Shown here: positions 8,343 through 50,971 of the stretch, piece by piece | Position numbering within the stretch: the stretch's first letter is position 1 | Layout: every line of letters begins with the position of its first letter | Assembly (NCBI GenBank): GCA_032718475.1 | Contig: JAUCBJ010005005.1 | Coordinates: forward strand, 4,528-68,527 | Reading direction: 5' to 3' | Origin: Nemertoderma westbladi | Taxonomy: Eukaryota; Animalia; Xenacoelomorpha | Length of the DNA: 64,000 bases | Program-made: the position numbers and the translations under genes | The notes under the pieces: model-generated | What the model saw: only the letters and a program-made list of their open reading frames with translations | Database searches by the model: none | What the model was told of the DNA's origin: nothing

Positions 8343-8347
8343 TTAAA

Positions 8348-8877
8348 TGTTAGCTTATCCAATTCCGCTAACACCCCATAAAGTTATAAGCCGATAAGCA
8401 ATATTGGGAGCCACGAGATTGGATAATTAACCAACTCGTGCCATCCCAATAAGAGTGGGAAGCAAGCACACAATAAAGGGTCAGGGGCAAAACCCCTAAC
8501 CCAGAGAGAACAGATGGAGTGAACGGGAACACTCCACGGGGTGCCAACAAGGGCATCAACCAATCAGAGGGGGGCAAGGCATCGATTAGGTAGTAATTAG
8601 GCCAACCGTGCAATATAAAAAGTAATCCAATATCAGTAATTCAGTTATCTCAGTGCAGTAGTGCTAGCATAGGTTAATTAGTTTAGATAGGGGAGCACGG
8701 GACTTTTAGTTACCGTATCCCGCCTTCCATATACTATACAATATATCTATATCTTATACCTTTATTATTATACACCGAACTTCAGAACTCATTTTACTTT
8801 CATTCACTCTTTATACACGGCGGGGACGCGTGAACTAAATACCGGATAAATCGGGATCCCTCCTGGATCCCGTCACA
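8348..8877 (+). repeat. Element D 5' LTR
   Basis: Direct repeat of 15010-15539; TATAAAAA at ~8614 and TCAGTT initiator-like at ~8641. Confidence 0.95.
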
Positions 8878-8887
8878 GTAACTAAAA
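8878..8887 (+). other. Element D non-tRNA primer-binding site GTAACTAAAA
   Basis: Abuts the 5' LTR, lacks TGG, exact complement of LTR segment TTTTAGTTAC at 8704-8713. Confidence 0.75.
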
Positions 8888-12779: not shown

Positions 12780-14400
12780 AAGTTAGGTAGTAAGAATTAG
12801 TTAGTTAGAGGGTGGTACGTAGTACCGCTAGTTAGTTAGAGAGTTAGAGGGTACGTAAGTACCGCTAATTAGTTAGAGAGTTAGAGGGTACGTAAGTACC
12901 GCTAGTTAGTTAGAGTTAGAGGGTATGTAAGTACCGCTAGTTAGTTAGAGTTAGAGGGTACGTAAGTACCGCTAGTTAGTTAGAGAGTTAGAGGGTACGT
13001 AAGTACCGCTAGTTAGTTAGAGTTAGAGGGTACGTAAGTACCGATTAGAGAGTAAGAGTTAGAGGGTACGCAGTACCGTTAGAGAGTAGGAGTTAAGGGG
13101 TACGTAGTACCATTAGAGAGTAAGAGTTAGAGGGTACGTAGTACCGTTAGTTAGTGGAGTTAGAGTAAGAGTTAGAGGGTACGCAGTACCGTTAGAGAGT
13201 AGGAGTTAAGGGGTACGTAGTACCGTTAGAGAGTTAGTAAGAGTAAGAGGGTACGTAGTACCGCTAGCTAGTAGAGAGAGCTAGAGTAGTAAGAGGGTAC
13301 GTTGTACCGCTAGCTAGTAGAGAGAGCTAGAGTAGTAAGAGGGTACGTTGTACCGCTAGCTAGTAGAGAGAGCTAGAGTAGTAAGAGGGTACGTAGTACC
13401 GCTAGTTAGGGGTGTTAGTAGTAGCAGTAGAGGGTTGTGGGCACCACGCCACGTAGTTAAGCGCCACGTAGTTAGAGTTAGTAGGGAATGCGCTGAACTT
13501 AGTGGGGCACGGGCGTGATGATGTGTTTGATGTAAGAGCAGGGTATGTTAATTAGGGTGGGTGCCGGGCACAAGAGGTGCCGGGCACAAAAGGAGTTAGT
13601 TGAGTTAGTAGTAGAGTTAGTTGAGTTAGTAGAGAGTTAGTAGAGTTAGAAGGTGCCGGGCACAAGAGGTGCCGGGCACAAAAAGAGTTAGTAGAGTTAG
13701 AAGGTGCCGGGCACAAGAGGTGCCGGGCACAAAAAGAGTTAGTAAGAGTTAGTAGAGAGTTAGTAGAGTTAGTAGAGTCAGTAGTAGTTCACATAATTAA
13801 CGTACCCACTCTGCCGGCACTCCAGAGCGTCACGTGTAGGCGAGTAGACGTAAAGGGAGTAGATGCAAAGGAGGTAAGTTAGAGATAGAGTAGAGTAGCA
13901 GGGAGGGCACATAGGGTGCCAAGTAGTAGAGTTAGAGTGTTAGAGGTAGTAGAGAGGGCACATAGGGTGCCAGGTAGTAGAGTTAGAGAGGTAGTAGTGT
14001 AGTAGAGAGGGCACATAGGGTGCCAGGTAGTAGAGCTAGAGAGGTAGTTGAGTAGTAGAAGGGCACATAGGGTGCCAGATAGTAGAGTGGTTGTGGGCAC
14101 CGCAAGCGCCACGTAGTTAGAAGAGTGGAGTAGAGTTAGTAGAGCTAGTTAGTAGAGTTAGCAGAGCTAGTGGAGTAGAGTTAGCAGAGCTAGTGGAGTA
14201 GAGTTAGTAGAGCTAGTTAGCAGAGTTAGTAGACTCAGAGGAGTCAAGTAGAGTTAGTAGAAGTAGAAAGTTAGTAGGAGTTAGTTAGACTTAGTAGAGA
14301 GTTAGAGTCAGTAGAAAGTTAGAGGCTCTCAGTTAGAGCTAGAAGTAGTAAGAGTTAGTAGTTAGCAGAGTTAGTTAGATAGTTAGAGTTAGTAAGCAGT
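12780..14400 (+). repeat. Purine-rich tandem arrays with embedded mini-hairpins inside element D
   Basis: About 16 GGTAC-N3/4-GTACC units, then GGCAC/GTGCC units, spaced by GAGTTAGT-type sequence. Confidence 0.9.
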
Positions 14401-15009: not shown

Positions 15010-15539
15010 TGTTAGCTTATCCAATTCCGCTAACACCCCATAAAGTTATAAGCCGATAAGCAATATTGGGAGCCACGAGATTGGATAATTAACCAACTCG
15101 TGCCATCCCAATAAGAGTGGGAAGCAAGCACACAATAAAGGGTCAGGGGCCAAACCCCTAACCCAGAGAGAACAGATGGAGTGAACGGGAACACTCCATG
15201 TGGTGCCAACAAGGGTATCAACCAATCAGAGGGGGGCAAGGCATCGATTAGGTAGTAATTAGGCCAACCGTGCAATATAACCAGTAACCCAATATCAGTA
15301 ATTCAGTTATCTCAGTGCAGTAGTGCTAGCATAGGTTAATTAGTTTAGATAGGGGAGCACGGGACTTTTAGTTACCGTATCCCGCCTTCCATATACTATA
15401 CAATATATCTATATCTTATACCTTTATTATTATACACCGAACTTCAGAACTCATTTTACTTTCATTCACTCTTTATACACGGCGGGGACGCGTGAACTAA
15501 ATACCGGATAAATCGGGATCCCTCCTGGATCCCGTCACA
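15010..15539 (+). repeat. Element D 3' LTR
   Basis: Direct repeat of 8348-8877. Confidence 0.95.
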
Positions 15540-17559
15540 TTAAATATTGTGTGGTATATGTTTCCACATCTCCATATCGTTGTATTCTTTCCTCCTCGAA
15601 TAACACGTCAAGATTCCAGTGTACTAAACGAGTTTTGATGAATCCATCAAGATTATACGGAGGTATTGTTTCTTTCTCTATTCTGGAAACATTGTATGGT
15701 TTTCGAAATGAGTTTATTTTAACCAACTGATCCAGATGTTTATGCAGTTGTTCGAGTTCGACAAGATCAAGAGGATTTATGAGTGGCAGAAACCTCAGAC
15801 TATGTGTAGGATCTTCCGGTTTTACCATGTAATATTGTGTTAGGTTAACGTAATAAGGGTGATCTTTGATCCCATAAAACGAGTCCGGTAAAGGTCTAGC
15901 GCGTATGTTTACATCGTGTACCATGCGACAGACAAGATCCGCTCTATTGTCCGGAGGTTCAACGAGTATACCATCTACACGAGCGGCTTCGATGGGTGGA
16001 CGTTGCAACATGGGAGCGTCAGCGATAAGCTCTCTAGATCTTAGGTTGATATCAACCGGTTGGGGTTGTATCGTCGCAAAGAGTTTGTCTCCGAAATGGG
16101 GAACCATCGAGGGATGAAGGATGGTTTTAGAGTAGAGATCCGTCATAAGGATTTGAGCTTCGGGTTGAGCTAAAGCTGCTTCATCTCTCTCATCTAGTTC
16201 TATATGTCTCTCCTCGAGCTGATTTTCCTCCGCTTGTTGTTGTAGACGCTCATCTAGGAACTCTTGTAAAGAGTAGGTTCGTCCACGTTCGATGTCCTCT
16301 TCGAGATTTTGTATTTCTCTATCGAACTGGGGTAAAGCTAATTCCTTCACCGCTTGGACTTGTTGTTGCAATTTATGTTTCTCCAAACAATCGTAAGTTC
16401 CTTTTCCTATTTTCTGCCGAATAGCATCTAACACGTTTCGTACGACGCTCTCTTCGACTTCCGTAACGGGTTATATCGAGGTGAAGCTGGGACGGTTGTG
16501 TGGGTTAAACGGCGATATTAGATGACCGCGTCCCAATCCAGTTAGGTAGGGTTGGCGAATATCTAGTGAGCCTACTACCGGAGTACCACCGATCAACTGT
16601 TCGGGTAACACTAGATCTTTGAACAGTGAGTACAGTTCGGGAGGATCCGTGATACTATTAGGATCAAGAGTCTGAGGTCTAACTGAGGAATGAGGAGGTC
16701 TGACCGAGTATTCCGGAACTCTGATCATTGGTTTGTTCAAGGATCGTTTGAGTCGAGCGACCGTAGGGGATACGTCGAACAGGTTTCGCTCGAAACTCCC
16801 ATAAGTATATCGTGTAAAACTGTGTTTAGCGCAACGTCTCCGCGGATGTTTATGTCTTTCCGTTTGCTGATTGGGTCTAGGGCATTCGTCGCAGTAATAC
16901 CAAAGACGCATGTCCTGCAGGGGAAACGCGGGTGATCGTTCTCCAGTTTTACAATATTCCTCCATCTGTTCGAAGCTATCTGGGACGACAGGTAGCGGTC
17001 GATCGGCGGTAAGATACATCATAGTGAAATAGAGTCGTTTGAGTTCTATCATAGGATCATGATGTATACCTTGGGGATATCGAGTTTCGAGATTTTGTTG
17101 ACTGGCAATATTGAGATATGTCTCTCTCAGGAATTCCAGATAATCGTTGAAGTCGCTGCGTTTATCCGGCTCTTCAACGTCTTCCCTTTTGAGTTTGTTT
17201 CGAATAGAGTTCTCGTGTTCTATTCTCGGTTTATTGTTCCGACTCCGCTGGGTATGATATTTAAATAAAACCATTTCCCTTTCGGTGTCTACATCGTCCG
17301 TATCGTGTAAATCGATAGGATGGCCAGTAGTTAAGAAGTCCATATACGTACCATTACGATGCGTATAGCGAGCGGTGAACTTTCTATAATCCAATTCACG
17401 CGTAAGTTGCTCCTGGGACATTGGCGGTTCGATATAACGACCATCATCCTCCGTAGTAGTTGGACCAGCGTCTCCGCGTATCAAGCTATCGACACACGCT
17501 TGTAAAGGTAGAGTATATCGCTCCCTAATACCGAGATCATCTTCTATCAACTCAGTCAT
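15540..17559 (-). pseudogene. Element B accessory ORF, N-terminal part (novel CxxC...CxxH domain plus helical region)
   Basis: ORFs 16471..17559 and 15535..16434 are in frame, separated by one TAA where C encodes Gln; similar to 36930..37847 (RLYxTMxYL, YYxCxxC, RCxxH). Confidence 0.75.
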
Positions 17560-18376
17560 ATCTGCTATGAGTTTATCAATATTATAATGAGTTTATATAT
17601 TAGGCTAGCGGGCGTCGCTGCCTACCCCTCTTTTGCCCCCGGACAGTGCAAGATCCTCAGCGCCGATGTACCGTCATCGCTGTGCTTTCGCCAACGATGT
17701 AGCTACACAACGACAACGATAACCGGCACAAGTCACTCCACTGTCCGTCCCAAAGGCTTAGATGTACTTCAGGTTCTTTCTGGAGAGTTAGGGTTACTTT
17801 CACAATTGCGACTAGCTACTGTAAACACACTTTAGCAGTAACATTCACCTATGAACGCACAAATTCAACACAACTGCCATAAACTGTATACATTCGGGCC
17901 ATTTGTCCGTTAGTCAGTACCTTCCAGAATGTCACTTTATTTATTATGTATCCTTGGATACTAGCAGTGCGCTATTTATTCCCTATGCTATTCAATGGGG
18001 CAAGCCTTCTATTGTTCTTTTAACTCACTTCTAATTCTAGCGTGGTTGTTGCCATGGTGACATTATGGAAAGCTAGCGGTAGAATTAGGGTAATTCTCAT
18101 GCATACAGATCTGGGATGCTATTTAATAGTAATTCTTTAATTGTCAATATCCTCTCTATATATGATTTTATGAATTTTATCGGCTATTGACTATATATTG
18201 GAGATTCTCGCACACAAATACACTTAATAGAGTGAATCTCCGCTCCCATGATCTATTAATTAATGGAATTTTGGGAATGTTATAAATTGTATAAAATGAC
18301 AATTTATTAAATTCATTGAAATATCTGAATTTAAATTTATTCCCGTAAATTTTATTATTTAATGTTAAATAGACAC

Positions 18377-19189: not shown

Positions 19190-20623
19190 TTACGTTATGG
19201 AGTCCCTAGATATTTGTTGGATTAGGGAGGTGGTCGTGGGAAGAGTATCTTGCCTTCCATAGTTTCCGGACAGTTTTCGGTCTCTTTCCAGTAAATATAA
19301 ACGACCAGCTGGGCGATTGAGTGGTTGTGTTACTTTCTCCGCTCCCTTGGCCTGTCTAATCTTAGTCGGGTTAAGGTGGGGAGGCCATTCATCTTCTTTA
19401 CTTAGGAAGTCGGGTTCACCTAACCAGTCTGGAATATCTGTCAGTTCTTGAGGAGTTGCTCCTCTGGAGGCGATGTCGGCTAGATTGATCGTCTCGGGGC
19501 AATGTCTCCATTGATCTACATTGGAGTTGATGTCGTCATTATCTGAGGAGTATGGTGTTCCCTCAGTTGGGTCGTCAACTTCACTGCTCTCCACTTCCCG
19601 TTCACTTAATTGATATACCTGTTCTTTTGGTAATCTTTCCATAAGAGTTCTACGAGAAGGGCCAGTAAAGTACCAACCTACTCTAGTTCTTCCCGCATAG
19701 ACTTGTAGTGGTTGCGGTTGAGCAGGCCGTTTCTCCAATGTCTCGAGCGCCTCATGCGCATTTTTGACCGATGAGTATTTGGACTCCAGGGTAATCGGTG
19801 TTGAATCTAGGTATTTCAAGCTGCTGGGTGAAATCGTCCTCATCCCAGTTATAAGGTTCCACTTGGCTGGTCGCGAAGTTCTTTATCGCTACCATATTTA
19901 CTGACCTTATGCTGTGTTCTCCTAGTTCATCCTGGGGGGTGGACAACGCGCCTACATAATAATCCGCTATTACGGTAGATTTCCAAACCTGCATAATTCC
20001 TGACATGTTTAGCTTAGTTCGGAACTTGGGTTGTCCAGCAAAGATGTCTTCGGCTAGTTCTTTGTCGATGAATGTTCCTGTGCTACCGGAGTCAAGGAGG
20101 GCGTTCACTATATAACTCCTTGTACGTCTGTGGACCCTTAACTGTACTACAGGAAATTCTCGGATTCCTACATATTGGAAGTTGGTGCTTTCCAAGATGG
20201 TTGTCTGTCAGAAGTAGTTAGGGGGAGCTCGCTATCGGTGTCCTTTTCATACGTAAGTGCTCGATACACTGCGGTATTTGTCAGGTAACAGGATTCGTTT
20301 TCGTCGGAGAATTCGTCCGTATAGAATCCTTCCATCTCAGAATATTGGTCAGTGTCGTTCACATCACTGAATTGGACATGTAGTTCGGACTCACTTACCT
20401 GACTCGGGCTGTTTCGTTCGAATTCCGTGTGCAACAAGATATGATGTTTTGCGCCGCACTTTGCACACCTTGCGTCGGAGTAACAGGTTCGCCGTTGGTG
20501 TCCTCGTCTGAGGCAATTATAACACAACCGCTTATCCCACATGACTTCACGTCTATCCTTTAATGATTTCTTTAGGAATTTATCACACATATTCAAACGG
20601 TGGCCCCGTCGCACAGCACACAT
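19190..20623 (-). pseudogene. Element B gag zinc knuckles and aspartic protease, frameshifted; pol ends before RT
   Basis: CYNCLRRGHQRRTC, CAKCGAKHHILLH, ALLDSGSTGTFI and RTRVGWYFTGP lie in three frames. Confidence 0.85.
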
Positions 20624-23600
20624 TTTGGTTTGATGTTACTTACCTTATTTTGAATAACATTGTGCACACTCGTTCTTTCTTCGGACTTTCTCACCTGAAT
20701 TCTCTTAGGAGACGTAGGAGGAGTTTTTCTTACCTGTTCTCTCCTGTCATTGGTTCGAGACTTGAGTTTACTTACCTGTTCTTTAGGCATTTTATTGACA
20801 TAATAAGATCTTTCAGTGTCTTTCCCGCTATCTTCTCCTTGAGAAGTCTGGCTTTCGCCGTCGTCTATATAACACACTGGTGTTACCTTTCTCCTAGAAA
20901 CGGGTTTCTCACTTACCTTGTTTTCCGGTGTCTTCTCTCTGGACTGCTTTATGAGCTGTAATTTCACTTCGCCATCCAAGAATGACATGAGATCAGCCAT
21001 GGTAGGGTCTCGTTGTTGTTGTTCCATCATATATATCATTTTCTTGTCCCAGCGTGTACCTACTCCACCCTTCGGTAAAGTAGAAGCCACTGCTCTAATA
21101 ACCATAGCACTCTGATACTCATGAGACTTACCTAGCCAATCTAATTGTCTGCAGATCTCCTGAATCTCATCGGAAAACTCTATAATCCCGCTGCTAATAA
21201 ACTTTTGGGGCGCTACCAACTTTGCATACAAATACCCAGCTATGTTATTCCTATTACCATACCTGATGTTTAGTGTATCCCAAACTTGTCTTAATCCGTC
21301 TGGATGTCCAATAAACTTTAACGCCATTAACTTGGGAGATCCTTCCAAGCACTCGATGAGGAATCTAAGTTTCTCTCCATTAGATAGCACAGAGTTCTGT
21401 ATGTTATCTTTGTAATATTCATTAAAAGGTAACCATTTCATCTCATCTCCATTGAACTTGACTATCTCTCCCACCTTTACCGCTTGGCGGGCTTCGGTTC
21501 TAGCCATTTGACGCGTAAAACTTTCTTGGGCCATCGTGTTATTTAATATCGAGTTATCGGTATATAAATTTCTTGGATTATGATCAGGTCTATAGGGAAT
21601 ATCACTATCAACAGGTCTATAATTACCCTTAATAGGGTTTACTATAGGAGTTTCTACTTCGCTAGCAGTATAGATGCGTGTAGGCTCCACACCTTGCGCA
21701 TGAGATACTTCAGACCTAACGGGTTGACATATTGTTACAGAGGGTGGTGATATACCCTTTTGTAAATTTACTAATTTATCGCGTTCTAGCGCGATACTTT
21801 GCTGCACTTCTTGCAACTCTAACCTACTTTCCTTTACGGTTCCCTTTAACTGTTGAACAGTCCCTTCTAACTCTCGGACCTGTTGGGAGGAGCGCACTCG
21901 ATTCTCCTTCATCTCTCCAAGGAGAATGTCCATCCCCCGCCGTCTCTCGTCTACCCAATCAACCGCCGAAGCGGGATCCGCCAACGTCGTAGCGGGCAGA
22001 CGAGGGACTACGGGCGATATATCCTTTAAATTTCGCTCGGAGTCCAGGACCGACACTGTTTCAGGGGCTGTTCCTCTAGGCACAGATAATTTGGTGCTGT
22101 GTAAAGGGAATTTAAAGGTGGGTTCTGGGAGCACAGGTGTCTCTATCACCGAAGGGGTGATTTCAAGAACAGGCCTAATTATTTCAGGCTCATCTACTAT
22201 AGTAGGGAGTCTTTCTATTTTAATTATTTGGTCTGTGGGTTCTGTACTACCTAAATCTGTGTTAGTTAGTTGCCTTCTAACAGCTGGGGGCAAATCAGGC
22301 AATTTGTGACGGTGAGATGTTCTTCTACGTCTACTTAGACGAGATCTATTTCCTCCGCCTTCAGGATCGGTGGTATCGCCTTCCTCAGATGAGGTATAAC
22401 CTTGTCTTTTGGGAGTAGATCTATTCATCATCTGCATATTACTAGCTGTTAACTGTTTACTGAAGTTGTCTTGCTTCTCTTGAAGATTTTCCAACTCTAG
22501 TTGGGTTGTCTCTTCAGATGCCCTCCGTTCTGCTTCTGCCACTGCTATTTTTGCCTCTGCCGCTGCCTCTGCCACTGCCGCCTTTCTTTCTGCTTCTGCC
22601 ACTGCTGCTGCCGCTGCTGCTATCTTTCTGTCTTCTATACGTTTTTTCTTTACTTGTTCTTCTTGAACCTTAGCGATGCAGATGCTTTCATTGAATTTAG
22701 CTTGGTTCGCAGCTAACCTATCCACATCGATTGCGTCCAACACACGCTGGGCTCCTTCACTATTAGGGCTAAGCCCCTCTAGTCTTCTCCTCAACTCTTC
22801 ATCTCCTACAAAACGTTGATAGTCCGACAGATAGATGTCAATGGCATCCCTCTTATGCGGCTTCTCTGCCGTCGCTTCACTTTCCACTTGGGAAAAAGTA
22901 GCGTCTGTTGATTCTCCATGGGTTGAGCGCTCATCCAGTTGGGCTTTCCACTGAGTCGTTCCTTGCACCTGGAGGCTCACCCGTTGAAACCAAGTCTTTA
23001 CGGCAACTTGCAACGACGTGTCTTGTCTTCTTTTAGAAGCCTCCTCAAAGGCCGATAAGATTAGCCTGATTCGTAGAATTCTTTCTCTAACTCGATAAAG
23101 CAGCTGTCCCTGCTCTTGAGGTCCTTGGGGTTGTTGAAACAGTTGTTTTTCTAATCGCTCCATGGAGCTGAAGAATCCCTGTACGTATCCGGCTGCGGAC
23201 CTCTTCCACACAGCTGGATCGATGGTTTCCTTGGTTACTCCCATCCTGTGTATATCTTCCCAAGCAGCTTCTGATAAATTTAACGGGAGTCCGGGTCCGG
23301 GGAAGTTCCATTGCGACTCGACAATAGACTTCAGTTCTTCCCTTGTGTATCCCGCATAACTATCTTTAGTCGATCGCTTACTTCTCGCCCAATCGATCTG
23401 GTGTTCTTCCACCGCAATCAATAACCTAGTGAGTACGGCTGCAGGAAGGATGAGAAGGGGATCCGAATAAACCGCATCCGTCATCTTTGCTCCGCGCTCG
23501 GGTGTCAGCTCTACAGTATCCTCACTACTGGAGCTGTCGGGCCATTGAGAAATAAGTTCTTGGCTCGCGGGTTGTTGTTGTTCCGCTGCTTCTTGGTCCC

Positions 23601-23799
23601 GCTTGACCTGAGCTCTAGTGCCTATGATAGACCTACGGTGTTGGACCAGCCTAGGTTCTGATATTACTACTGGGGGAATGATCTTTCTTACAGTAGGAGG
23701 TGAGTTGAACTTCGGTCTAACACGTTCCACACTCCTGTCTAGGTCACATATGGTTGTATCTAGGAGACTGTCTGACAGATTTTGCTTTGTGTCAGACAT
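20593..23799 (-). CDS. gag: Element B Gag (Bel/Pao, DUF1759-like capsid region)
   Basis: 1068 aa; KFNGDEMKWLPF...EKLRFLIECLEG signature; leads into the Cys/His knuckles. Confidence 0.85.
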   Translation of the reverse strand: MSDTKQNLSDSLLDTTICDLDRSVERVRPKFNSPPTVRKIIPPVVISEPRLVQHRRSIIGTRAQVKRDQEAAEQQQPASQELISQWPDSSSSEDTVELTPERGAKMTDAVYSDPLLILPAAVLTRLLIAVEEHQIDWARSKRSTKDSYAGYTREELKSIVESQWNFPGPGLPLNLSEAAWEDIHRMGVTKETIDPAVWKRSAAGYVQGFFSSMERLEKQLFQQPQGPQEQGQLLYRVRERILRIRLILSAFEEASKRRQDTSLQVAVKTWFQRVSLQVQGTTQWKAQLDERSTHGESTDATFSQVESEATAEKPHKRDAIDIYLSDYQRFVGDEELRRRLEGLSPNSEGAQRVLDAIDVDRLAANQAKFNESICIAKVQEEQVKKKRIEDRKIAAAAAAVAEAERKAAVAEAAAEAKIAVAEAERRASEETTQLELENLQEKQDNFSKQLTASNMQMMNRSTPKRQGYTSSEEGDTTDPEGGGNRSRLSRRRRTSHRHKLPDLPPAVRRQLTNTDLGSTEPTDQIIKIERLPTIVDEPEIIRPVLEITPSVIETPVLPEPTFKFPLHSTKLSVPRGTAPETVSVLDSERNLKDISPVVPRLPATTLADPASAVDWVDERRRGMDILLGEMKENRVRSSQQVRELEGTVQQLKGTVKESRLELQEVQQSIALERDKLVNLQKGISPPSVTICQPVRSEVSHAQGVEPTRIYTASEVETPIVNPIKGNYRPVDSDIPYRPDHNPRNLYTDNSILNNTMAQESFTRQMARTEARQAVKVGEIVKFNGDEMKWLPFNEYYKDNIQNSVLSNGEKLRFLIECLEGSPKLMALKFIGHPDGLRQVWDTLNIRYGNRNNIAGYLYAKLVAPQKFISSGIIEFSDEIQEICRQLDWLGKSHEYQSAMVIRAVASTLPKGGVGTRWDKKMIYMMEQQQRDPTMADLMSFLDGEVKLQLIKQSREKTPENKVSEKPVSRRKVTPVCYIDDGESQTSQGEDSGKDTERSYYVNKMPKEQVSKLKSRTNDRREQVRKTPPTSPKRIQVRKSEERTSVHNVIQNKVSNIKPKCVLCDGATV

Positions 23800-23929
23800 G
23801 TTGGTTTGTACAGTTGAATGCCTACTACTATATTACAGTTTAAGCAAGTTTAGTAATTCAGTATCAACTGTTAGCCTAGTAATTAATTACCGATACTGCT
23901 ACTTAGTGTAGCGTGATATATGTATAATA

Positions 23930-24315: not shown

Positions 24316-25257
24316 ATTATTTTAAATAATTGAATTTCTGAATTTTAAGGGTTACTTGGTTACTTTAACTTACTTTATTACCGTTATTTAAGCAGTAGTC
24401 CAACTGATATTTAGACCTAATTGTTGTATGGCAGGCCTACTATTTATAAATCTTTGAGTTGATTTATAATATATATACCCGTTATAATGGGTTTTTTGTC
24501 AATATTTGAAATAAATGTTATTATTTCTGGGGGGAGTCACTACACAGAAGCTGTGCGCTCTCAGTGGAGTGCTACTTGTTGGACACTAAAATAAATAATT
24601 CTAATTTACCTAAGTTACTTAATACTACAAATTACATACAGTTCGGGGTGAGATTACAATCTCTAAATAAACACAAAAATTACAAATACGAATTTTTAGG
24701 GTAATTTTTACAGGGAATCTACAAACCAGCCTAACAAAGGGTTATAATTCTGGTTATTACAACGGACAGAGTACTACGGTATTTGAAAATAATAAGTAGT
24801 AGTAAATATACTGCGTTGTCCAGATAGAAAAATACCACCGTCTGACGACTTATAGCCGTATCGCTATAAGTACTACGTTATGTATCACGGAGTGTTCCTA
24901 CCTAGAAGTTAATTACCGCGGTCTACCAGAACCAACGTGCCTATTAACCACTTTACAACACAAATATACTGCCTACACACTAATTTCCTTCGGAAAGCAC
25001 TGTACACTAAACCCTAAATTAGGTACAAGTACTTATACAACAAATAATTAGTAGTTAAAATACTTGAACAGCTAAAAGAACCACGGTATCTGCCGGAGTG
25101 ACCAAAGCACAAAATCTCCAGTCTTTACCTACGCCGAGCAGCCCTGATGTAGTACCGGGGTTAGTTTAACTGTAACGGTATATATAACAAGCACAATTAC
25201 TGCAGGAATAAACTTGGGGAATGAATGTTGCGAATAATCGCATAAACTCTGAATAAT

Positions 25258-25825
25258 AAATATTACGCTACGCGTACAGACTACTCAAACAAAATGCAGA
25301 CCAAATACTGACAGACTACTATCAAGCCCAAGCAAACTACGGTATATGCAGACTCCGAAATGGTTAGTTAGTATGCGTCCTAACCTAGTGGGACGACTTA
25401 TTCTTTCGAGGGGGTTTACCTCACAACTCTGGAAGCCCCTACGTTCCCAACTGGCACTTTATCAGACATACACTCTACACACACCGAAATCTCTCAAGAC
25501 CTAACAACAGCCAGACAAAATCCAGCCTACAAATTATCTAAGTAAGAAATATTACGCTACCCGTACAGACTATACAAACAAGGTACAGACCAAACGCTGG
25601 CAGACTACTATCAAGCCTAAATAAACTACAGTATATGCAGACTCCGAAATGGTTAGTTAGTATGCGTTCTAACCGAGTAGTACGACTTATTCTTTCGAGG
25701 GGGTTCACCTCACAGCACTGGCAGCCCCTACTTTCCTAACTAGTACTTTTTCGGACATATGCTCTACACACACTACAGTCCCTTCAGACTTAACAACAGT
25801 CAGACAACAGTCTAGCCTACTGAAA
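25258..25825. repeat. Tandem duplication of about 290 bp in the B leader
   Basis: AATATTACGCTAC...CAGCCTAC unit present twice. Confidence 0.85.
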
Positions 25826-25834
25826 TACAGAAGC

Positions 25835-25846
25835 TATATCCGTTAT
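25835..25846 (-). other. Element B non-tRNA primer-binding site ATAACGGATATA
   Basis: Abuts the 5' LTR; exact complement of the sense LTR segment at 26572-26583 (5583-5594 in the 3' LTR). Confidence 0.8.
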
Positions 25847-27014
25847 TGTTCGCGCTTTCAGACCTTTAGCAGTTTAACCTGCCAAATTTGGATGTCTTTT
25901 AAATGATAGATAGTCTTTAGCCTATGACAAGTATTTGATACACTACATTAGCCGAATCCAGTCCACGCGCGATCATTCACCCGCTGGATATACCCGGGAG
26001 ACTGGATTCGGAAGCCCAACCGTATTGCGGGGTAGGCCTACTGTATTATTCGACTGATCGTAATATATATAATCTCTGACAAATATTATTCACTTTAGGG
26101 AAATATTAACAGTTCCTTTAGGACGTGGCGCTTTAAATATATAAACAGAGTTATGACTTAAACTAGACACAACGGGATGGCTATAGATTCACGTATATGG
26201 CGCATTCTTTAGGAGATGCTTCGTTATCAATCACAATCATACACAATACTGCACAATGCTGCACACTAATCTGCCGACCTTCACTAATTTTAGTCACATA
26301 TAAGGAGAACAACAGACAATACGTGTAGGGCCTATAAAATAGCATTAGATTCACTTCAAACCACTTAATGTAAGTCGCAATCGTTATATGTATCCGGTCT
26401 CTCTAACCTTTAGTATATCAAGAAGATTGGGGTGTCTGATTGTTTATCAGTATTCCAAATATAATATTCCATCAACAAATATAATGAATAACCGACAGTA
26501 AATAGCAGTACGAAACACGGATTGAGTTAAGTAAGTTGTGTTGTGGTATGAGTTCAGTGAGGTATGTTGTGATAACGGATATACGTTCTATAATTAAGCC
26601 TACTAATGTTGAGCTAAAGACTGAAACACGGAGGTTCCACGCCGGTGTTGTAGGCTGTGGACAAAATCACATACTGACTCACTTCACTAGTTTCTATATA
26701 CAATCTCCAACACAGAGGCAAAAAACGCTCTGATTGGTCGACCGAACAAAGAGAGAACAAAGAACAAAGAGATGTTCCACGTAGCAATATCAGCTGTTAG
26801 CCGTCGTCATGGTAGCTACACTGTTTCAAGAGGATCCGGCGTATTGCGTCATAGAATTGCTAATCATGTCCGCTAAAGTACACATACAGAAGAAATGGCT
26901 TTTATGTCCTCTAAAACAACAATACAGTAAGGACACGGCCTTTTATGCCTGTTAAACCAACTACAGAGTACTTTACGGGGAAAATAACCGGCTAATTACG
27001 CAAAAGCCTTTACA
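25847..27014 (-). repeat. Element B 5' LTR (1168 bp)
   Basis: Repeat of 4858-6026; CCAAT, TATATAGAA and TCAGT on the minus strand. Confidence 0.95.
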
Positions 27015-27019
27015 ATCTC

Positions 27020-27876
27020 CGACAACTATATTTACTTTCAGGGAAATATTAGCAGTTCCATTGAGATATGGCGCTTTAAGTATCACGCAGAGTTATGACT
27101 GACACTAATTACAATGAATGGTCATGAGACTACACAGTATTTACATTGTTTAGGAATGTATAATTATTCGCTCGCATTTCTACACTCACGTCACTGACAA
27201 TAGTACTGAAACACACTAATTTGCCGTCTGTCACTGATTTTAGTCATATATAAGGAGGATTGCAACTCACATGCGTTGGGGTTATGAAATAGCATTAAAT
27301 TCATACAGACCACTATAAATTAGGCCACAATTGCTACTGATACACCCTTCTGCTTACCTCAGTAATTAAGAAAGTTAAGGGGGATTTAACGATTATTCAT
27401 CAGTATTCTCCAAATATTAGCAGTAATCAAATAGGTTACAAACACAGTATTATAACAATATAAACAATATAAGTTACGCGGTATGCCGCATTTAATCATC
27501 AGTCAGATGTTGTGTTAGAGAGTGTAAAGAGAGAGATAATTTACTGTGTTTTATAATTCTCTGACACTCTAGCCACAGATGGTCCATTGGGCAAAGTCAG
27601 AAATGTTAGAATGAATGATTGAATGAGTTCTGAAAGAAATTTGCCGCATTGCGTCATTTTACATAGGCTACAGAGCACAGGTAAAGGGAGATCGCGCTGA
27701 TTGGCTGAAATATGTCAACAAATAACACAGGTCCTAAGCACAAAGAAACAGCTGGTAGATTTCGTCATCTCAGCTCTGAGTTTGGACAAACGCTTAGTTG
27801 CATAAGTTTATAGGTCCTTTAGAGTATTTCAGCGCATCGCTCAAAATGACTTATTTTGCCCGCAAAAGCTTTTACA
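27020..27876 (-). repeat. Element C 3' LTR, part 2
   Basis: Diverged homolog of the B LTR; ends AAAAGCTTTTACA, followed by the same PPT motif CCGCTCTCAGAAAATGGGA. Confidence 0.85.
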
Positions 27877-28833
27877 CCGCTCTCAGAAAATGGGATTTAA
27901 GTCTATAAAATAGACATAAAATCACAGTTCCTAATATAAAAATACTCTAAACTATCAGTCCTTCTTTCACGAATGGCGTTTACGGAGTTTCTTAAAACTT
28001 GCGATAGTCTTTTTCTCCTTGGGGCGAGCCACTTTACTAGGAGGGCTATAACTCCTGGGGGAAGGGTGCAATACTATTACATCGGAAGGGTTAGGATTGC
28101 AGTCGGTGTATCCGCCGGTCGAGGTATCCGGTTGATCGATATCCATATCGGGGGATTGGGATTGAACAACCTTTAGGGCTCGTTTCAGGACAGCAGCTCT
28201 TACTGGTCCTTGATTGGTTGTCTGTACGACAGTGGTAGGTCGACCGTACGTAGTAAGGAATTTTCTCGGTTTAATCGTTCTTTCTAATTCGTGCTCCCTT
28301 GCTTTGTATTCATATGGTCGCCTATGAACTTCTTGTAATTCCGGGTGTGCGTTTATGAATAACTCACCGTATTCTTTCTTCCTCGAACAATACATATAAA
28401 TTCTAATGGACTATTCGAGTTTTAATAAATCCATCGAGGTTATATGGAGGTATTATTATGTCATTTTCTATTCTGGAGATGTTATAAGGTTTTCTAAATG
28501 AGTTTGCTTTAACTAATTGGTCAAAATGTTTTGGTAGTTGTTCAAGTTCAACAAGATCTAGGGGATTTATCAATGGTAGAAACTTTAAACTATGTGTAGG
28601 ATCTTCGGGTTTCACCATATAATATTGAGCTAAGTGGACATAGTAGGGGTGGTCTTTGATCCCGTAAAATGAGTTCTGTAAAGGTCTAGCGCGTATGTTA
28701 ACCTCGTGTACCATACGACGGACAAGGTCTGCTCGATTGTCCAGAGGTTCACCGAGTATACCGTCGACACGAGCAGCTTCAATCTGCGCACGTTGTAACA
28801 TAGGAGCGTCAGCGATAATATCTCGAGATCTAA
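27877..28833 (-). pseudogene. Element C accessory ORF remnant (3' part; exonuclease/knuckle region deleted)
   Basis: ORFs 27967..28395 and 28403..28801 closely match B 6105..6638 and 15535..16434. Confidence 0.85.
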
Positions 28834-30809
28834 CCGTTTAACGCCCATTGCACCTTAAATGGAACATGGCATTTGGAGAGACATGGGCGGCTGCTGCTTT
28901 GAAAAAAACGTGATTTTTTTTTGATATGAGTAAATTACATGTTTCCTCACATAATCACACCTTACTTGACCAAATTTTATCAATTTCAAAACTGGAAAAT
29001 GCCTGTTGAAAAGTGAAATTTTTGAAAAATTTAGGTGTCTTTTTGAATCTTAAAATTATGAGATGTAAGCAAGCAAGCAAGCAAACAGTCGGCCGAAGCC
29101 GGAGGCGACCCGAAGGCTCCTCTTTCGATAGCTGCTACCCGAGGGTAGGGGTGGGCGCTACTCCTATCCCAAGATTTGCTCCCAGTTATTTAACTGGTAC
29201 TCATTTTATCGACCCCAATGGATGAAAGGCTTAGTGGACCATGAGATGTGGGATGGTCAACAATTTTCGAAAATTAGCTTTCCTGTTGGCCTGAATGCTA
29301 TTTTAATCATTTTTATCAGTATTAGCTTTCAAATTTTTATTTAACAATGTTTAATACAGCAGCAAAGTGAAATGTTCCATTCAAGGTGCGTTGGGACTTC
29401 AAACTCATTTTTTTTTACATTTTTTTTAAAATTGCTTCACATAGTCCACATTCTACACCTGACTCGAATAAATTGCATTTTCTTGACCTGATTTTGATTA
29501 ACTTTGAAAAAATGTCTACAAGTTCTCCAAAAGACCAGTGGAAATGTGAAGAACATAACTCGATTGTCGAGTGTACTGTACCGTACATTGTATAGGTCTA
29601 TACTGTAGGTACAGTCAAGGCCTAGATACGGCAGAACACAGTGTAGATTAGTATATTTTTTAGCTAGTTTGTATTAGGCCTACTATTTTTTTTTTTTCAA
29701 TGTAACAATATTTTTTAAGATTATATATATAAGAAAGGACAAACGAAGAGACAGCAGAAACAAGTGGGGTGAACCCGACCCCGGAGCTGTGACACTCACG
29801 ATCTTCCGCTCCCGGCCTCAGTAAGGGCATGTCCAGGTTTGCTGGGTGGTGGGGACAGGAAAAGCGGAGGTTGATGCCCTCTCGGGTTCCTCTGCAGATG
29901 TGGAGAGGGAGGTTAGGGCAGGATCTAGGTGTGGGATGGCTGGTTGGTGGCCAAGGATGAGGGAAATAAGGGGTCCAGCCCTTCAAACGGAGTCTACATA
30001 TGCAGCTGGTACATGGTCAGTTGCCTTGCGCAGGCCTAGACCCCCCATAGCGGGTGGAAAGCATGCATTGTTGTATGACCAGTGGGAGAGCGAACCTCCG
30101 ACCAGGTCAGACAAGGAGTCACGCATGATGAGGTCAAATTCCAAGGAATACTGCACTACCAGAGATGGAGGGCAACAGCGCAGGGCGAAGACGACCTTGG
30201 GGCAAGCAGGAGCGGAGGAGGGCAGTTTCTATCTGCGAGTCCTGCAGGTCTGGCAGGCATGCAATTATGGCACGGACCTTTATTGATCCGTCCCATAACA
30301 GTATAAGGATCAGCATCAGTATATCGGAACAGCAGTACTTTGCACAATGTGCACAATGAACTTCTTGATACAAAAGTCGAGAACTTTATAGGCCTAGTAT
30401 GGTATGGTATAGTATAGTATAGTATGTGTACTTTGCATGTGTAGGCCCACTCTAGAGGCAAGGCATTACGCATTATATACTATACCTATAGGCCTATAAA
30501 CGGAACTCGATAAACCGAAAGTAAATCTGACAGAACATCCCTGATAAACGGCTACCGGAACCTATCTTAACAACAGTAACTTTTTTCCAGTTAGTTTATA
30601 TCAGTAAGCCGATGACCTGCTTATCCATACTGTAGCTGCATAGCCTAACTAAGTGCAGTAGCTTCTGAGCAATCAATGGGGTCCTATATAATTTATGTTA
30701 TTTATTTATTTATGTTTTTTTGCAAAAGTGTAAAAGTAAAGTTACTTTATTGGGCCATTTTGAGATAGTTTCCAAAATATGAAACATTTTTTAAGTGGGC
30801 GTTAAATGG
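28834..30809 (+). mobile_element. Non-autonomous piggyBac-like DNA transposon inserted in C
   Basis: TIRs CCGTTTAACGCCCA / TGGGCGTTAAATGG; flanks (T)TAA; degenerate Cys-rich remnant (RRRAVSICESC) at ~30150-30260; C ORF resumes on both sides. Confidence 0.7.
29085..29240 (-). mobile_element. SINE fragment (Meta-domain-like core)
   Basis: GGTACTCATTTTATCGACCCC..GGATGAAAGGCT core as recalled from metazoan SINEs; adjacent (AAGC)n tail. Confidence 0.55.
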
Positions 30810-30813
30810 TTAA

Positions 30814-31489
30814 GTTGATATCAACCGGTTGAGGTTGTGCTGTCGCGAAGAGTATATTTCCGAACTGAGGAACCATCGAAGGATGAATGATGGTTTTGGA
30901 GTAGAGATCAGTCATAAGTATCTGTGCTTCAGGTTGAGCTAAAGCTACTTCTTCTCTCTCGTCCATTTCGAAATGTTTCTCCTCTAGCTGATTCTCCTCT
31001 GCTTGTCTTTTAAACCGTTCGCACAAGAACTCTTGTAACGAATATGTACATCCAAGTTCAACATCTCCCTCCAGATTTTCGATTTCTCGATCAAACTGAG
31101 GTAAAGCTAATTCTTTTACCGCTTGTACTTGTTGATGTAATCTATGTTTGTCTAAACAATCATAGGTTTCTTTTCTGATCTTTTGCCGAATTGCGTCCAT
31201 TGCGTTCCATATGACACTTTCGTCCACTTCGGTTACAGATTGTATCGGAGTCAAACCGGGATGAATATACGGGTTGAATGGAGATATTAGATGCCCAGTG
31301 GGCATCTATCAGTGGACGTCCCAATCCGGCTTGGTAGGAAGGGCTAATATCCAAGGAGCCCACAACCGGAGTGCCACTGACCAATTGTTTGGATAGCACC
31401 AGATCTTTGAACAACGAGTACAACTCAGTAGGATCTGTCATACTGTCAGGGTCGAGAGTCTGCGGTCGCACCGGGGAATAAGGAGGTCT
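30814..31489 (-). pseudogene. Element C accessory ORF remnant (middle)
   Basis: ORFs 30802..31305 and 31160..31495 match B 16050-16705. Confidence 0.85.
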
Positions 31490-31494
31490 GACCA

Positions 31495-33387
31495 TATTGG
31501 AAGAGACAGCAACAATACCTGCAATATCCTACTGTAAAGTTTGTGAATCAAATCATAAATCCGACCTTCTCACCAAAACAGTAAACTCTAAGTAAGCGAA
31601 TATATTGCAGTATCGATCTCTTATAACCGGTGAGGCAGAAAACAGTCTACGAGCAGACAAACTTCGATGAAACAAAATCCCGCGCAGCGAATCCTAAAAT
31701 CAGGCTGACTCACTGACGGACTAAGGGGCTCGTATACTTTGCCGCGGTGTGATTTATATGGTTGGGCGAAAGAGACGCTAGCTAGGTACAGAGGCAGAGA
31801 TTTGGAGATGTCTAACTAGCGGGCAAAGCACAGTACGGACAAAAGTTAATTTTATATATTTTGAGGTGTAAATAATTTCTAACGCGCGTGTTAATTCTGA
31901 ACGGTCAAAAGCAGTTTTGCTCCTTCACATATATAATTACTGGGTACGGTGTGCATTTTACGAATATTCTAATTTTGTAACTCGTAGGTCCAATACTCAC
32001 GAATGATAAGGTTCCTTCCCCTCTTGCGTATTTCCAGGACTCAAATTCAGGCATAAGGTTAATGCTACGCCCAGAATTCGGCAATTTTAGGTACCAGGTC
32101 CCTGATACTAAGAAGAGATGTGTTAGTTTACTACTGTAGGCGTACAGTTACTAATAGCTATCCTGGCTCCTATCTAGAATTTTAGTCACCCAGGTAGTCC
32201 GGGTAACTTCCTATTAGGGCGTTGGCGGGGACACGGTAGATGTTAGTATCCCTAATAGCCTCAATTTATTTGCGCCTAGCTGTAAACTGCCCTACCGCCT
32301 GAACGGTACAATCCCAATTCAGGTGAAAACACAGCAACCCCTCTAGCCTACAAGTTCTAATGCAATGGACACCGTTGTACTACAAATAGTCGCACACGCA
32401 CCTGCACTTAGCAAGAGTTAGGCGTACAGTTTGCTGCACCCTACCAATTTGTATGCTTCGTACCAGTGTGCCTACGTCCTATCTGCGTACTAGTATCTGC
32501 CTGCTCTTTCCCTCTCCCCCCGTAGGAATGTGAAGGTCTACTGTGGGTTTTCCTGAATCAAGACAGTACAGTCCCTAAGATGTAATTTTAGGCTCACAGC
32601 GTGTCACTACTTCTACCTTTTGATCTTTTGGTCTTACACTTAGGTAGCAAGGCGTCGAACGCTGTCTAACCTTTCAGGCGATGGGTGAATAACTCAAGAT
32701 GGTATTGCGGGTTGTCTCTTGTCTACATTCCCCCGATGTTCCCGTTCATTGCTGCGGCCCGATCTCTAGCTGGCCATCCTGTCCCTTAGCTGGGTTCACC
32801 GTAGTGAATCATGGTAAAACAGATAGAAAAAAGCAGATTAGCGATAATTCTGACTTTATTACAGAAGATATAATTATAATACAATGTAATCTGAAATAAA
32901 CTAAGCACGACAGAATTAAAGTGATGTGTGTGATAGATATTGAATGAGATAACTAATGAACAAATCGCACCTTTATATACTAAATTTGTGCCGCAATCAA
33001 TCGAGAAAATTCTCGATTGTTCTATAGGTTCTAACAGGTTTTTAAAGATAGCTATTGGTCCAGCTAATATATAACTTGCACGACATTGGTTACAATCAAA
33101 TAACTACAGTCTCATTGGTACAGACAAATGCAATTAATTTGTAGCGGTTAATTTAAATGAGTTGAAATTCTGCACAAAAATAATTCGCACTTACTAGGAT
33201 TCGAACTCAATACCTACTACACATATAATTTCCAACGCTCTACCGACTGAGCTACTGAACCACTTGACCAATAGGCGTATAAATAGAAATAGCAATACAA
33301 ATGAGGACTCAAAGCAATCTTTACAAAGTTAATTCGAATAAAATAAAATTTTGAAAATCCACGGCATTTAGGGAATATAATTCTATA
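31495..33387 (-). repeat. Element A 3' LTR (1893 bp, TA...TA termini)
   Basis: About 4 substitutions and one 20-bp indel versus the 5' LTR (by eye). Confidence 0.95.
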
Positions 33388-34121: not shown

Positions 34122-36929
34122 TTATCGCTTAGTGGATCGAGCCCTGCCGCGTCCTCGAAAACTGCGCACAGGTGACTTTGCTCGCGATATGGGACTCGTG
34201 GGGCGAGTCACTGGTTTCGTTTGGACGTTGAGAGACGGTGCGACCATTTCCTCGCAAATTCGTCTATTTGGCATCCCAAAACTTCGACCGATTCCTCGTG
34301 ACCGATCAGTTGTCACTACAGTTGGTAGAACGTCTGGGAACGCGCGAGAAGCGGACGACGCAGACCCAAGAGTAGCTTGCGCCCCCTGTTGATCAGCTGG
34401 TGTATGTCCCGATCCTCCTACTGGTTCTCTAGGAAGCGATACCGTATCCCGAGTAATTCGAATGGTCGGCTCAACTCCCTTGCGTTCTTCTACATTAATA
34501 ATTTTCTTTAATTGTTGGCCCACTTTCTGGACCCGTATGATCCTACCCTGTCCGTCCTCCCGAGGGTGACGTGCAGACGGCGCAACCGGAGTGGCTGGTA
34601 TATTTGTCGCCTCTAGGACCTCTTCTTCCTCGAATACGCTCGCTCGTATACGTTTATGGTAAAACGCGGCTCGGTACGCCCATGCGACGGTTAACCAAGC
34701 TCCTTTGTTCCGCTTTTCAGTTCGGAAACGATCGAATTCACCATACGTAATGCGATTAACGACTTTCTGAAAATTCCACGTGTTTTTGTTATCCGGGTGA
34801 ATCTGTAGTAGATACTCGCGCACCACTCGGAATCCGCTGTCGTGGGGCAAAATATCGACAACCTCGATAAGTTCGTCATATTGGGGCATAGCGGAGATGT
34901 ATCCTTCCGACATCATCGTTTGGGGATTTACCGCCCAAAATCCAAGATGCGCTCTCATCGGAAACCGTCTTCTTTGTGCTGATACATGTTCGTCGGCTAA
35001 ATCTTCCCACTCATCAAATAACTTCCTCACGAGTTTTACAGATTCGTGTTCATAAGGTATATCTCTTAGTTGGCATTCAGATGCTCGATGTCCTTTTATA
35101 TTGCAGTAAGTACATTGAGCCATAAATCTCCAGCAAGTATAAAAGGTATGAGACCCTTGATCCCCACACCATCCACAGATTAGCTGAGTCGTAGTAATGT
35201 GCTTTCCACTGCACTTTGTCATATGATGTCCAGCGACGCCACATTTACTACACATCGTATTGGCAGGGTACCACACTCGTTCGTATATAAGATCTCCAAT
35301 CGGTCGAGCGCTTCCTCCCACACTATAATCGTAATCATCTGGGTCTATGGGTTGGTAGGTTTCTGAAGGTTGTATACAAACTATAGCATCTGTTGCTTCA
35401 AGTTGTCGAATCTCCGTCTGAGATTTCTTCGGGAGGTTCCTTTCTATCTCAAGAAGTTCCTCTAAAGGATCATCGGCGATCGTAGTAGTTACTTCGAAAT
35501 CATCACCAAGGTGACCGATAGGCGCGCGCGTCTGCCGTGATTCTTCCGTAATCTCCACGATACGTTCTCCTTCATAGGGTAACAATGTAAACATAGATGG
35601 TCTTTCGATAAGAGATCCCGCACAGCGAAGATACACGTCTCGAAATATACTAAATCCTGCTCGAGTAAAGGCATTACACTGAGCGTCGGAGTTGTAGAAG
35701 GGTTCAAGGAATCGTCTAAACACGTCGGTACGAATTCTCCCTTCCATGTAGAACGTATGATCTTCTCCGAGACAAAGTGGATGTCTTTTGAGAGTCCGAG
35801 ACACAATGTCGGCGATTAGGCAAACATTCACTGACAACTCTATTGCTAAATAATATTGTAGGACCGCTCTTGGAGGTGACGTAATAGCCCAATACACGCA
35901 TCCTCTCCATTTAAGCTGTGATTCAAACTCACTCATATCTGGAGTATCACCTTCTCCATAAGTTTCAATATACTTGTTTCTCTTATTTTCCTTATAATCC
36001 CAATTGAATAACAGGTAGGAAATGTATCCAGTTCCAGTCTTCTGAGTATTATACTCACGAAAATATCCCTGTTCTATAGACCACAAAATAAGAGGTCGAG
36101 TGTCGACGTAAGGTGTCGGTAGTCGGTCATCGCTGTCCGTCATGCCGGCGAAGTCGCTAATTAAATCCTCCCTTACTCCTGATCCAATCTTTACAACAGT
36201 TTTATCTAAAATCATGTTTCTTACCATCTTCGGTAGCATTCTAGCGTCAATATTACAAGCTTGGTCCATCTTCTTTACTATGTCGGTGATAAGATGGTGT
36301 CGCTTTGTATTCGCTGGAGGTATCGGCATTCGTTTGTCGCTCCTCTGTCTACTGAAAACGTGCAGGACTCCGTCCGCCGCTCTAATTTGTATAGTCTTAG
36401 AAGTCAAACTCTTCTGATGACTGCCGCCCTCGTTATCGTAAAACATGTAACCGTTTTCCTGAAACGATCTAAATGTCCTATTCCATTCATCCAACAATTC
36501 TTCCGAAGGTTGCCAAATCTTCTCTATGTCCTTATCATCTTCGAAACGAATAACCTTACCTCGCCAATCTGCGGCAATATCTGTATCCGACTCGAAGGTT
36601 CCGGTTCCAATCCATAAACGAATCGTCTTGGTTAAATATCCTTTCAAATTACTCGGAGCTATATCGGCACCAGCTCTATCCAGTTCCTTGAAGTCTTGGA
36701 TATGAGGTGGGACGTTGTACACGACCTTTTGAGTAATATGTCTACGTAAATCATATATCTTGCTCATATCGCTGAAAACAACTGCAGGAAGAAACTCCAA
36801 GTTCGAAATGATTTCTGGATGATCCACGATGGGTATTTCGTACGTCGTATCCTGTCGGACTGGTATACTAATAGGGAAATTGAGTGTCGTACTCAATGGT
36901 TTCGTAGTTGATGTACTATACGGTTGCAT
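34122..36929 (-). CDS. Element A ORF3: DEDDy/WRN-like 3'-5' exonuclease domain plus three CCHC zinc knuckles
   Basis: 935-aa intact ORF; FYDNEGG, VVKIGSGVREDL, YVDTRPL, YLAIE; CSKCGVAGHHMTKC, CGWCGDQGSHTFYTC, CTYCNIKGHRASEC. Confidence 0.75.
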   Translation of the reverse strand: MQPYSTSTTKPLSTTLNFPISIPVRQDTTYEIPIVDHPEIISNLEFLPAVVFSDMSKIYDLRRHITQKVVYNVPPHIQDFKELDRAGADIAPSNLKGYLTKTIRLWIGTGTFESDTDIAADWRGKVIRFEDDKDIEKIWQPSEELLDEWNRTFRSFQENGYMFYDNEGGSHQKSLTSKTIQIRAADGVLHVFSRQRSDKRMPIPPANTKRHHLITDIVKKMDQACNIDARMLPKMVRNMILDKTVVKIGSGVREDLISDFAGMTDSDDRLPTPYVDTRPLILWSIEQGYFREYNTQKTGTGYISYLLFNWDYKENKRNKYIETYGEGDTPDMSEFESQLKWRGCVYWAITSPPRAVLQYYLAIELSVNVCLIADIVSRTLKRHPLCLGEDHTFYMEGRIRTDVFRRFLEPFYNSDAQCNAFTRAGFSIFRDVYLRCAGSLIERPSMFTLLPYEGERIVEITEESRQTRAPIGHLGDDFEVTTTIADDPLEELLEIERNLPKKSQTEIRQLEATDAIVCIQPSETYQPIDPDDYDYSVGGSARPIGDLIYERVWYPANTMCSKCGVAGHHMTKCSGKHITTTQLICGWCGDQGSHTFYTCWRFMAQCTYCNIKGHRASECQLRDIPYEHESVKLVRKLFDEWEDLADEHVSAQRRRFPMRAHLGFWAVNPQTMMSEGYISAMPQYDELIEVVDILPHDSGFRVVREYLLQIHPDNKNTWNFQKVVNRITYGEFDRFRTEKRNKGAWLTVAWAYRAAFYHKRIRASVFEEEEVLEATNIPATPVAPSARHPREDGQGRIIRVQKVGQQLKKIINVEERKGVEPTIRITRDTVSLPREPVGGSGHTPADQQGAQATLGSASSASRAFPDVLPTVVTTDRSRGIGRSFGMPNRRICEEMVAPSLNVQTKPVTRPTSPISRAKSPVRSFRGRGRARSTKR

Positions 36930-49498: not shown

Positions 49499-50162
49499 AC
49501 ATACGTAAGTGGTCCGTCAGATGTTTCAATTGTCCATCCAGTCGGTACAGTTCCTGTTCTTCCTCGGGCTGTAATAATTCGTCCGAAACTGACTCACCTA
49601 ACAACTGGTCCGCTTGTTCCTGTTGTATCTGTCTAATCGTCGACTTAAACTGAATCAGTTTCTCTCTAGCGATCATTAGTTTCTCGAGGATTCTAAGTTG
49701 AGTATCCATGTCCTGTCTCTGTCTAGCTAGATCTTGTAGGCCAACTAGATTATCTACGGACTTATATACTTTACTCTGTACTCTAACCTGGAGGGTGTAG
49801 AACTCGAATCGAGACATCGGAGCGGTCAACTCGTCTAATATGCGTTGGCCTTCTCCAATACTCCTGGTAATATGCGCCATGTATCCACCGACGCTTCTAA
49901 CCACGCTCTCCTGGCTTCCTGCTGAACTTACCATGTCCGTTTCCCTGTATCTAGGTTGCGGAACAGTTAGAAAGTCCTCGGTCCTGCCGTCGCCTCGTAC
50001 TACGGCATCCGGTACTCCCGTTGGATGTACTGGTGACGCACACGGTGTAGGTTCGGTAGGCTCGCGAGTCTTCCCCTGTTGTTCTTCCGCTGCTGACTTA
50101 TCCGCGTCACACGAGTCATAGTCGGTAGGTGTGTTCTTCGTATAGTCTTGTTTGTCACTCAT
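49499..50162 (-). pseudogene. gag: Element A gag N-terminus
   Basis: MSDKQD start downstream of the leader (compare B MSDTKQ); cut by the EnSpm-like insertion. Confidence 0.85.
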
Positions 50163-50960: not shown

Positions 50961-50971
50961 CACATTCCTAC
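50961..50971 (-). other. Element A non-tRNA primer-binding site GTAGGAATGTG
   Basis: Abuts the 5' LTR; exact complement of sense LTR segment CACATTCCTAC at 51999-52009 (32522-32532 in the 3' LTR). Confidence 0.8.

Follow-up and report, generated by a model that had tools for sequence, protein, structure and literature searches.

A primer binding site complementary to its own LTR suggests self-priming in BEL/Pao retrotransposons

The primer binding site (PBS) of element B, an LTR retrotransposon in the 64,000-nt stretch of DNA analysed here (the window), is the exact complement of a 12-nt segment within the element's own LTR, and this match is real and not a product of chance. We propose that B primes reverse transcription not with a tRNA but with an internal, 5'-derived RNA of its own LTR that is cut at the 3' end of the segment, and that B is an intron-less form of such a system; we assign this reading a probability of roughly 0.6. 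That self-priming takes place in some form is very probable. The argument is carried by the geometry of the match, its recurrence, paired changes in related families, and the lack of a match in a relative with a TGG-type site, from which we infer the cut and the priming; the start site and the splicing are predictions from the DNA.

LTR elements are nested within one another in the window (4656-53622). B lies inside an LTR of its relative B2, element N lies inside the extra ORF of B, and element C, together with a 2-kb insert (28831-30810), lies inside the extra ORF of B2. The features of B are as follows.

25847-27014, minus strand: 5' LTR of B, 1168 nt, TG..CA
4858-6026, minus strand: 3' LTR of B, 1169 nt, 6 differences from the 5' LTR
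25835-25846, minus strand: PBS of B, 12 nt, flush with the 5' LTR end (offset 0), without TGG
26572-26583, minus strand: candidate self-primer segment, exact complement of the PBS, LTR position 432-443, ends A-T, next base C
5583-5594, minus strand: second copy of the segment, in the 3' LTR
26673-26737, minus strand: predicted promoter (prediction only), CCAAT 26737, TATA 26700, TCAGT initiator 26677, +1 at about 26675
20593-23832, minus strand: gag ORF, DUF1759 (E 9.5e-11)
19190-20635, minus strand: zinc knuckle, protease motif and short RNase H-region tail, frames broken

The target-site duplication (TSD) of B is ATCTC. Reverse transcriptase (RT) and integrase are missing from the element, and B is therefore non-autonomous; since its LTRs also differ at only 6 positions and its gag carries DUF1759, we classify it, from its sequence, as a young non-autonomous BEL/Pao derivative. 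Directly after the PBS, within the 2-kb leader, there is a 289-nt tandem duplication (25248-25820) whose copies are 85% alike. No tRNA genes or Rfam families were detected in the window by ARAGORN and Rfam, and a scan of viral contigs gave no relative. A decayed stretch at 59120-59660 resembles, by eye only, a fragment of a non-LTR reverse transcriptase.

The first-pass annotation had described a 12-nt complementarity between PBS and LTR in B, and both 12-mers were indeed found at these positions as exact complements; the segment is identical in the two LTRs. The pairing also ends at the LTR boundary as described, for a C.A mismatch comes directly after it, and beyond that nothing more pairs on that side. 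The distance of about 90 nt between a predicted start and the segment was computed as 92 nt, from the CCAAT/TATA/TCAGT prediction only, the three blocks lying at LTR positions 278, 315 and 338. When the LTR was subjected to dinucleotide shuffling, a 12-mer at offset 0 appeared in 9 of 20,000 shuffles, and in 16 of 20,000 at offsets 0-6. The 12-bp core helix has a value of only -13.3 kcal/mol. On its far side the helix is extendable past a 2x2 loop by 7 bp and then more, giving -29.7 kcal/mol, with 31 of 1000 shuffled arms as good; a shorter test of the same arm was not significant (473 of 1000 as good). A search for an intron across the segment of B itself gave nothing convincing, the single match using the segment's own GT.

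RNA folding had been proposed as a check. If the RNA is made to end at the segment, a two-strand fold gives the core helix of B a probability of 0.87-0.97; when the whole leader from the predicted start was folded, the probability was 0 in B, compared with 0.44 in N and 0.18 in C. Tf1-type flanking duplexes were not found in B (140/300 and 133/300 shuffles as good). The AATAAA signal was not found in B either, which leaves its R region undefined.

Comparison with other B copies, which had also been proposed, was possible on the segment side only, in the contigs of run X1, whose kind is uncertain and which contain diverged B-like sequence. Two diverged contigs keep the segment region as an island:

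26570-26610, minus strand: island kept in the X1 contigs, the segment plus about 27 nt upstream that could extend the duplex

One of them matches only this island out of the 281-nt stretch compared, with 6 differences. The other holds the exact 12-mer, in a loose end, and its spacing to the CCAAT block is 93 nt versus 95 nt while the intervening letters differ. This pattern of conservation suggests selection on the segment. The 12-mer of B was not found in the LTR of B2, but the PBS of B2 lies outside the window and so B2 is uninformative. In the B2 LTR (27515-27555) a TATAAAA is seen by eye some 29 nt ahead of where the segment of B aligns.

The same geometry was found in the other two elements of the window with a readable PBS.

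31495-33387 and 50972-52884, minus strand: LTRs of C, TA..TA instead of TG..CA, clean 5-bp TSD GACCA
38507-46378, minus strand: gag-pol ORF of C, 2623 codons in a single frame, with DUF1759, Peptidase_A17 and DUF5641
50961-50971, minus strand: PBS of C, 11 nt, offset 0, without TGG
51999-52009, minus strand: LTR segment complementary to the PBS of C, LTR position 876-886
8348-8877 and 15010-15539, plus strand: LTRs of N, TG..CA, TSD TTAAA; N is gag-only and nested in B
8878-8887, plus strand: PBS of N, 10 nt, offset 0, without TGG
8704-8713, plus strand: LTR segment complementary to the PBS of N, LTR position 357-366

All three elements (3/3) thus show a perfect complement of 10-12 nt at offset 0, in unrelated sequences. 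For C, a match at offset 0 was reached in 9 of 20,000 shuffles and at offsets 0-6 in 70 of 20,000; the corresponding counts for N are 20 and 56. C carries its own RT, RNase H and integrase in the order PR-RT-RH-IN, and its RT-RH region is 39-44% identical to many BEL/Pao polyproteins, the named ones being from marine invertebrates. RT, RNase H and integrase are absent from N, whose only link is a weak knuckle match to the gag of C (E 0.007), and its membership in BEL/Pao is tentative. The PBS-LTR match is still kept in B and N, both of which are without RT. In none of the three elements does a TGG occur within 10 nt of the LTR end; a match to an internal part of a host tRNA may still exist.

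The segment of C is directly followed by a run of purines resembling a polypurine tract (51980-51998), which can pair with the last bases of the LTR at a borderline level (21/300 shuffles as good). In the U3 of the C 5' LTR (about 52695-52760, minus strand) a tRNA-like A-box and B-box are seen by eye, uncalled by ARAGORN and Rfam, and upstream of the C gag there is a 258-codon frame (49401-50177) with no Pfam match. The 3' half of N (12781-14100) is occupied by long purine-rich tandem repeats where pol would be.

The recurrence extends to BEL/Pao relatives outside the window. A metagenome scan gave 608 confirmed stretches, and the best 80 of these provided 79 BEL/Pao loci. From them, 20 relatives with a readable LTR and PBS were chosen; the LTR end was fixed by two copies in 12 and was set by eye, after the pattern had been noticed, in the other 8. 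Two of the 20, L045 and L047, belong to a single family. In most of the 20 the contiguous match is at most 7 nt, and the PBS matches instead the joint left when a GT..AG intron is removed from the LTR. Under strict splice rules, a self-match of at least 10 nt was found in 16/20 (14 spliced and 2 contiguous), compared with 6/480 mismatched PBS-LTR pairs; 9 of the 12 relatives with independently fixed LTR ends reach this length. When any GT..AG was allowed, the count rose to 18/20 against 32/480 in the control (8/480 at 11 nt or more). L035 and L068 were missed by the strict filter and found under the relaxed rules, while L079, with 12 nt at offset 9, was also missed by the strict filter and was seen by eye only. 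An automated scan of the 79 loci found a spliced match of at least 11 nt in 26/79, including one at a wrong site (L046), versus 1/79 on the reverse strand; contigs that have no LTR are among the 53 misses.

The 16 distinct joints that remain have consensus donors, offsets of 0-5 and a second exon of 4-7 nt, with splicing predicted from the DNA. They belong to families that share ancestry and so do not count as 16 independent events. All 16 joints end in AC or AT, and in 14/16 the next base is C. The ends in the window elements (AT|C in B, AC|C in N and AC|G in C) fit this A-pyrimidine register, and the fact that families this divergent have an A-pyrimidine|C end in common suggests that the cut is sequence-specific. 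In related families (L014, L053 and L059) paired changes occur on the PBS side and the segment side. The only relative with a TGG site is L048 (PBS at offset 5, L048:56-80), which has an LTR of 194 nt, no intron and no self-match, and which appears to be a tRNA-primed contrast to the others.

Since most of these relatives contain the complement only once the predicted intron is removed, the complement must function at the RNA level, and this argues against the segment of B being in untranscribed U3, the outcome that would have spoken against the original proposal. In 13/20 relatives a poly(A) hexamer lies downstream of the segment, which is thereby placed in R. The spacing between TATA and segment is far from constant, ranging over 31-465 nt. 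In a quick tree, from which 6/48 loci with short matches were excluded, the contiguous forms L049, L056 and L079 are interspersed with spliced ones, a pattern consistent either with introns having been lost repeatedly or with contigs that derive from spliced RNA. C forms a long branch in this tree, and its link to the spliced relatives is uncertain.

These elements can be compared with known systems. According to ICTV, Belpaoviridae have an 18-nt PBS for tRNA-Arg or tRNA-Gly (PMC8742986). B, C and N resemble them in their LTRs and TSDs, B and C in the DUF1759 gag, and C in the PR-RT-RH-IN order; there is no 18-nt PBS of the tRNA-Arg or tRNA-Gly type in the three elements, although the protein domains are still BEL/Pao. 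In Tf1, Tf2 and Tj1 of the Tf1/sushi group, the sections available describe a PBS by the 5' LTR that complements 10-12 nt of the element's own LTR RNA, no tRNA site, and a cut that frees a 3'-OH (PMC7175516, PMC4600332); for Tf1 they describe RNase H cutting between bases 11 and 12 (PMC7175516), and a primer consisting of the first 11 nt of the RNA that needs a three-duplex pretzel (bioRxiv 2022.12.06.519325). The PBSs of B, C and N likewise complement their own 5' LTR over 12, 11 and 10 nt at offset 0, within a criterion of at least 10 nt at 0-5 nt from the LTR. This is also the form in which self-priming is predicted, in the accessible text of PMC6317226, for the TAR lineage of Ty1/copia (Houba, Osr-1) and for Tcn1 (at least 10 nt complementary, site 0-5 nt after the LTR). 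On the other hand, the domains here are BEL/Pao and not those of a Ty3/gypsy chromovirus pol, the primer is predicted 52-445 nt inside the RNA and is split by an intron in many relatives, and there is no pretzel, as the flanking duplexes of B are no better than shuffles and C has one borderline arm. The TAR lineage and Tcn1 are plant copia and gypsy lineages, and a split primer is unmentioned in the part of that source available. The BEL/Pao system therefore works like Tf1, but B, C and N are not members of Tf1/sushi.

No report of self-priming in BEL/Pao was found in literature searches whose reach ended at subscription journals, the Repbase and GyDB texts and supplements. In a BEL/Pao survey, a term search showed that PBS, primer, tRNA and intron do not occur (PMC3118150). 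The accessible portions of the Sinbad paper mention neither PBS nor tRNA (PMC554778), those of PMC8220671 and PMC3601003 hold nothing on BEL/Pao self-priming, and those of PMC7175516, PMC4600332, PMC6317226 and bioRxiv 2022.12.06.519325 describe self-priming only for gypsy and copia lineages.

The suggestion that the segment of B serves as its own primer, ending where DNA synthesis must start, is supported by the recurrence of this geometry, with different sequences, in C, N and many BEL/Pao relatives. Under the proposed mechanism, transcription of B would start about 92 nt upstream of the segment, at the predicted promoter. The 5'-derived leader, either of the same RNA molecule or of a short LTR transcript, would anneal to the PBS. 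A cut just past the A-pyrimidine would then leave a 3'-OH at the LTR edge or at most 5 nt from it, and by analogy with Tf1 the cutter is probably the RNase H of a helper element. Strong-stop DNA would copy only the part of the LTR downstream of the cut and then jump to the 3' LTR. In many relatives, splicing of the LTR intron 4-7 nt before the cut would complete the segment; the intron would persist, since strong-stop DNA stops short of it, and it would be inherited from an unspliced copy. B, C and N would be the intron-less form of this system. Several observations weigh against the model: the whole B leader does not fold into the helix, the 12-bp core is of low stability, Tf1-type flanking duplexes are lacking in B, TATA-to-segment distances are widely spread, B has no AATAAA, the placement of C is uncertain, and relaxed splice rules raise the control counts.

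Could the pairing be structural only? The segment, in its 5' or 3' copy, and the PBS region might fold or circularise the RNA or aid strand transfer, with a host RNA such as a tRNA fragment as the primer. The helix of B being extendable past 12 bp fits such a role. Against it, each family has the match placed exactly where the primer sits, with its end 0-5 nt away from the LTR edge, the PBS sequences differ among families without a common host-RNA motif, and the single TGG-type relative has no self-match. We regard this explanation as unlikely.

Slightly less likely still is a mechanism identical to that of Tf1, where the RNA would begin with the segment itself, its first 12 nt would serve as the primer, and the TATA/TCAGT block upstream would not mark where genomic RNA begins. 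The TATA box of L033 lies 31 nt before its segment, the TATAAAA of B2 noted above has a similar placement by eye, and the TATA/TCAGT stretch of B is not kept in one X1 contig. Nevertheless, B lacks a TATA box some 30 nt ahead of its segment, CCAAT-TATA-initiator blocks stand 90-465 nt upstream in B, C and N, and the pretzel was not found.

Of equally low standing is priming from the 3' end, which may involve the extra ORFs that B, C and B2 have in common between pol and the 3' LTR.

34122-36929, minus strand: extra ORF of C
6105-8349 and 15535-17592, minus strand: extra ORF of B
27873-31493 and 52885-53622, minus strand: extra ORF of B2

One of these ORFs resembles 3'-5' exonucleases (Atlas score 0.92; 24/30 matches in the PF01612 set), followed by zinc knuckles; the copy in B is broken into pieces. 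Searches gave no sequence homologue and none in PDB or Pfam, none of the searches made showed it to be env-like, and the single-sequence fold gave no usable model (pLDDT 31.5). Any link between this ORF and priming is speculative. In this alternative, the segment copy in the 3' LTR is trimmed as far as the edge of the duplex, primes synthesis from the PBS and circularises the RNA, and the exonuclease-like product could do the trimming. The identity of the segment in both LTRs of B, the lack of a poly(A) hexamer in B, the exonuclease-like ORF in B and C, and the offset of 0 in all three window elements are consistent with it. It is opposed by the short 3' non-coding regions of the inspected relatives, which by eye have no room for such an ORF, and by L033, where the segment is at the predicted cap so that no repeat remains for strand transfer. 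Finally, a chance inverted repeat, for which a single 12-mer has a probability near 1 in 1000-2000, is refuted by the recurrence in 3/3 window elements and 26/79 loci versus 1/79.

Returning to priming by an internal LTR RNA, the observations can be joined in a wider reading, which we hold tentatively and at somewhat less than even odds. A large animal branch of BEL/Pao may have swapped tRNA priming for a primer that is cut from within the RNA of the element's own LTR, the cut falling at a conserved A-pyrimidine|C register. Most members would have this primer assembled from two LTR exons by the host spliceosome, separating primer RNA from genome RNA, while B, C and N would be an intron-less lineage that has also acquired a 3'-5' exonuclease-like gene whose product could give the primer its finished end.

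If the proposal is true, a third superfamily has reached self-priming by another route, with the primer inside the RNA and dependent on splicing in many members, and retrotransposition would be tied to splicing control. It would explain BEL/Pao elements without a recognisable PBS, and it would specify exactly, in a form open to testing, which RNA should be attached to the 5' end of strong-stop DNA.
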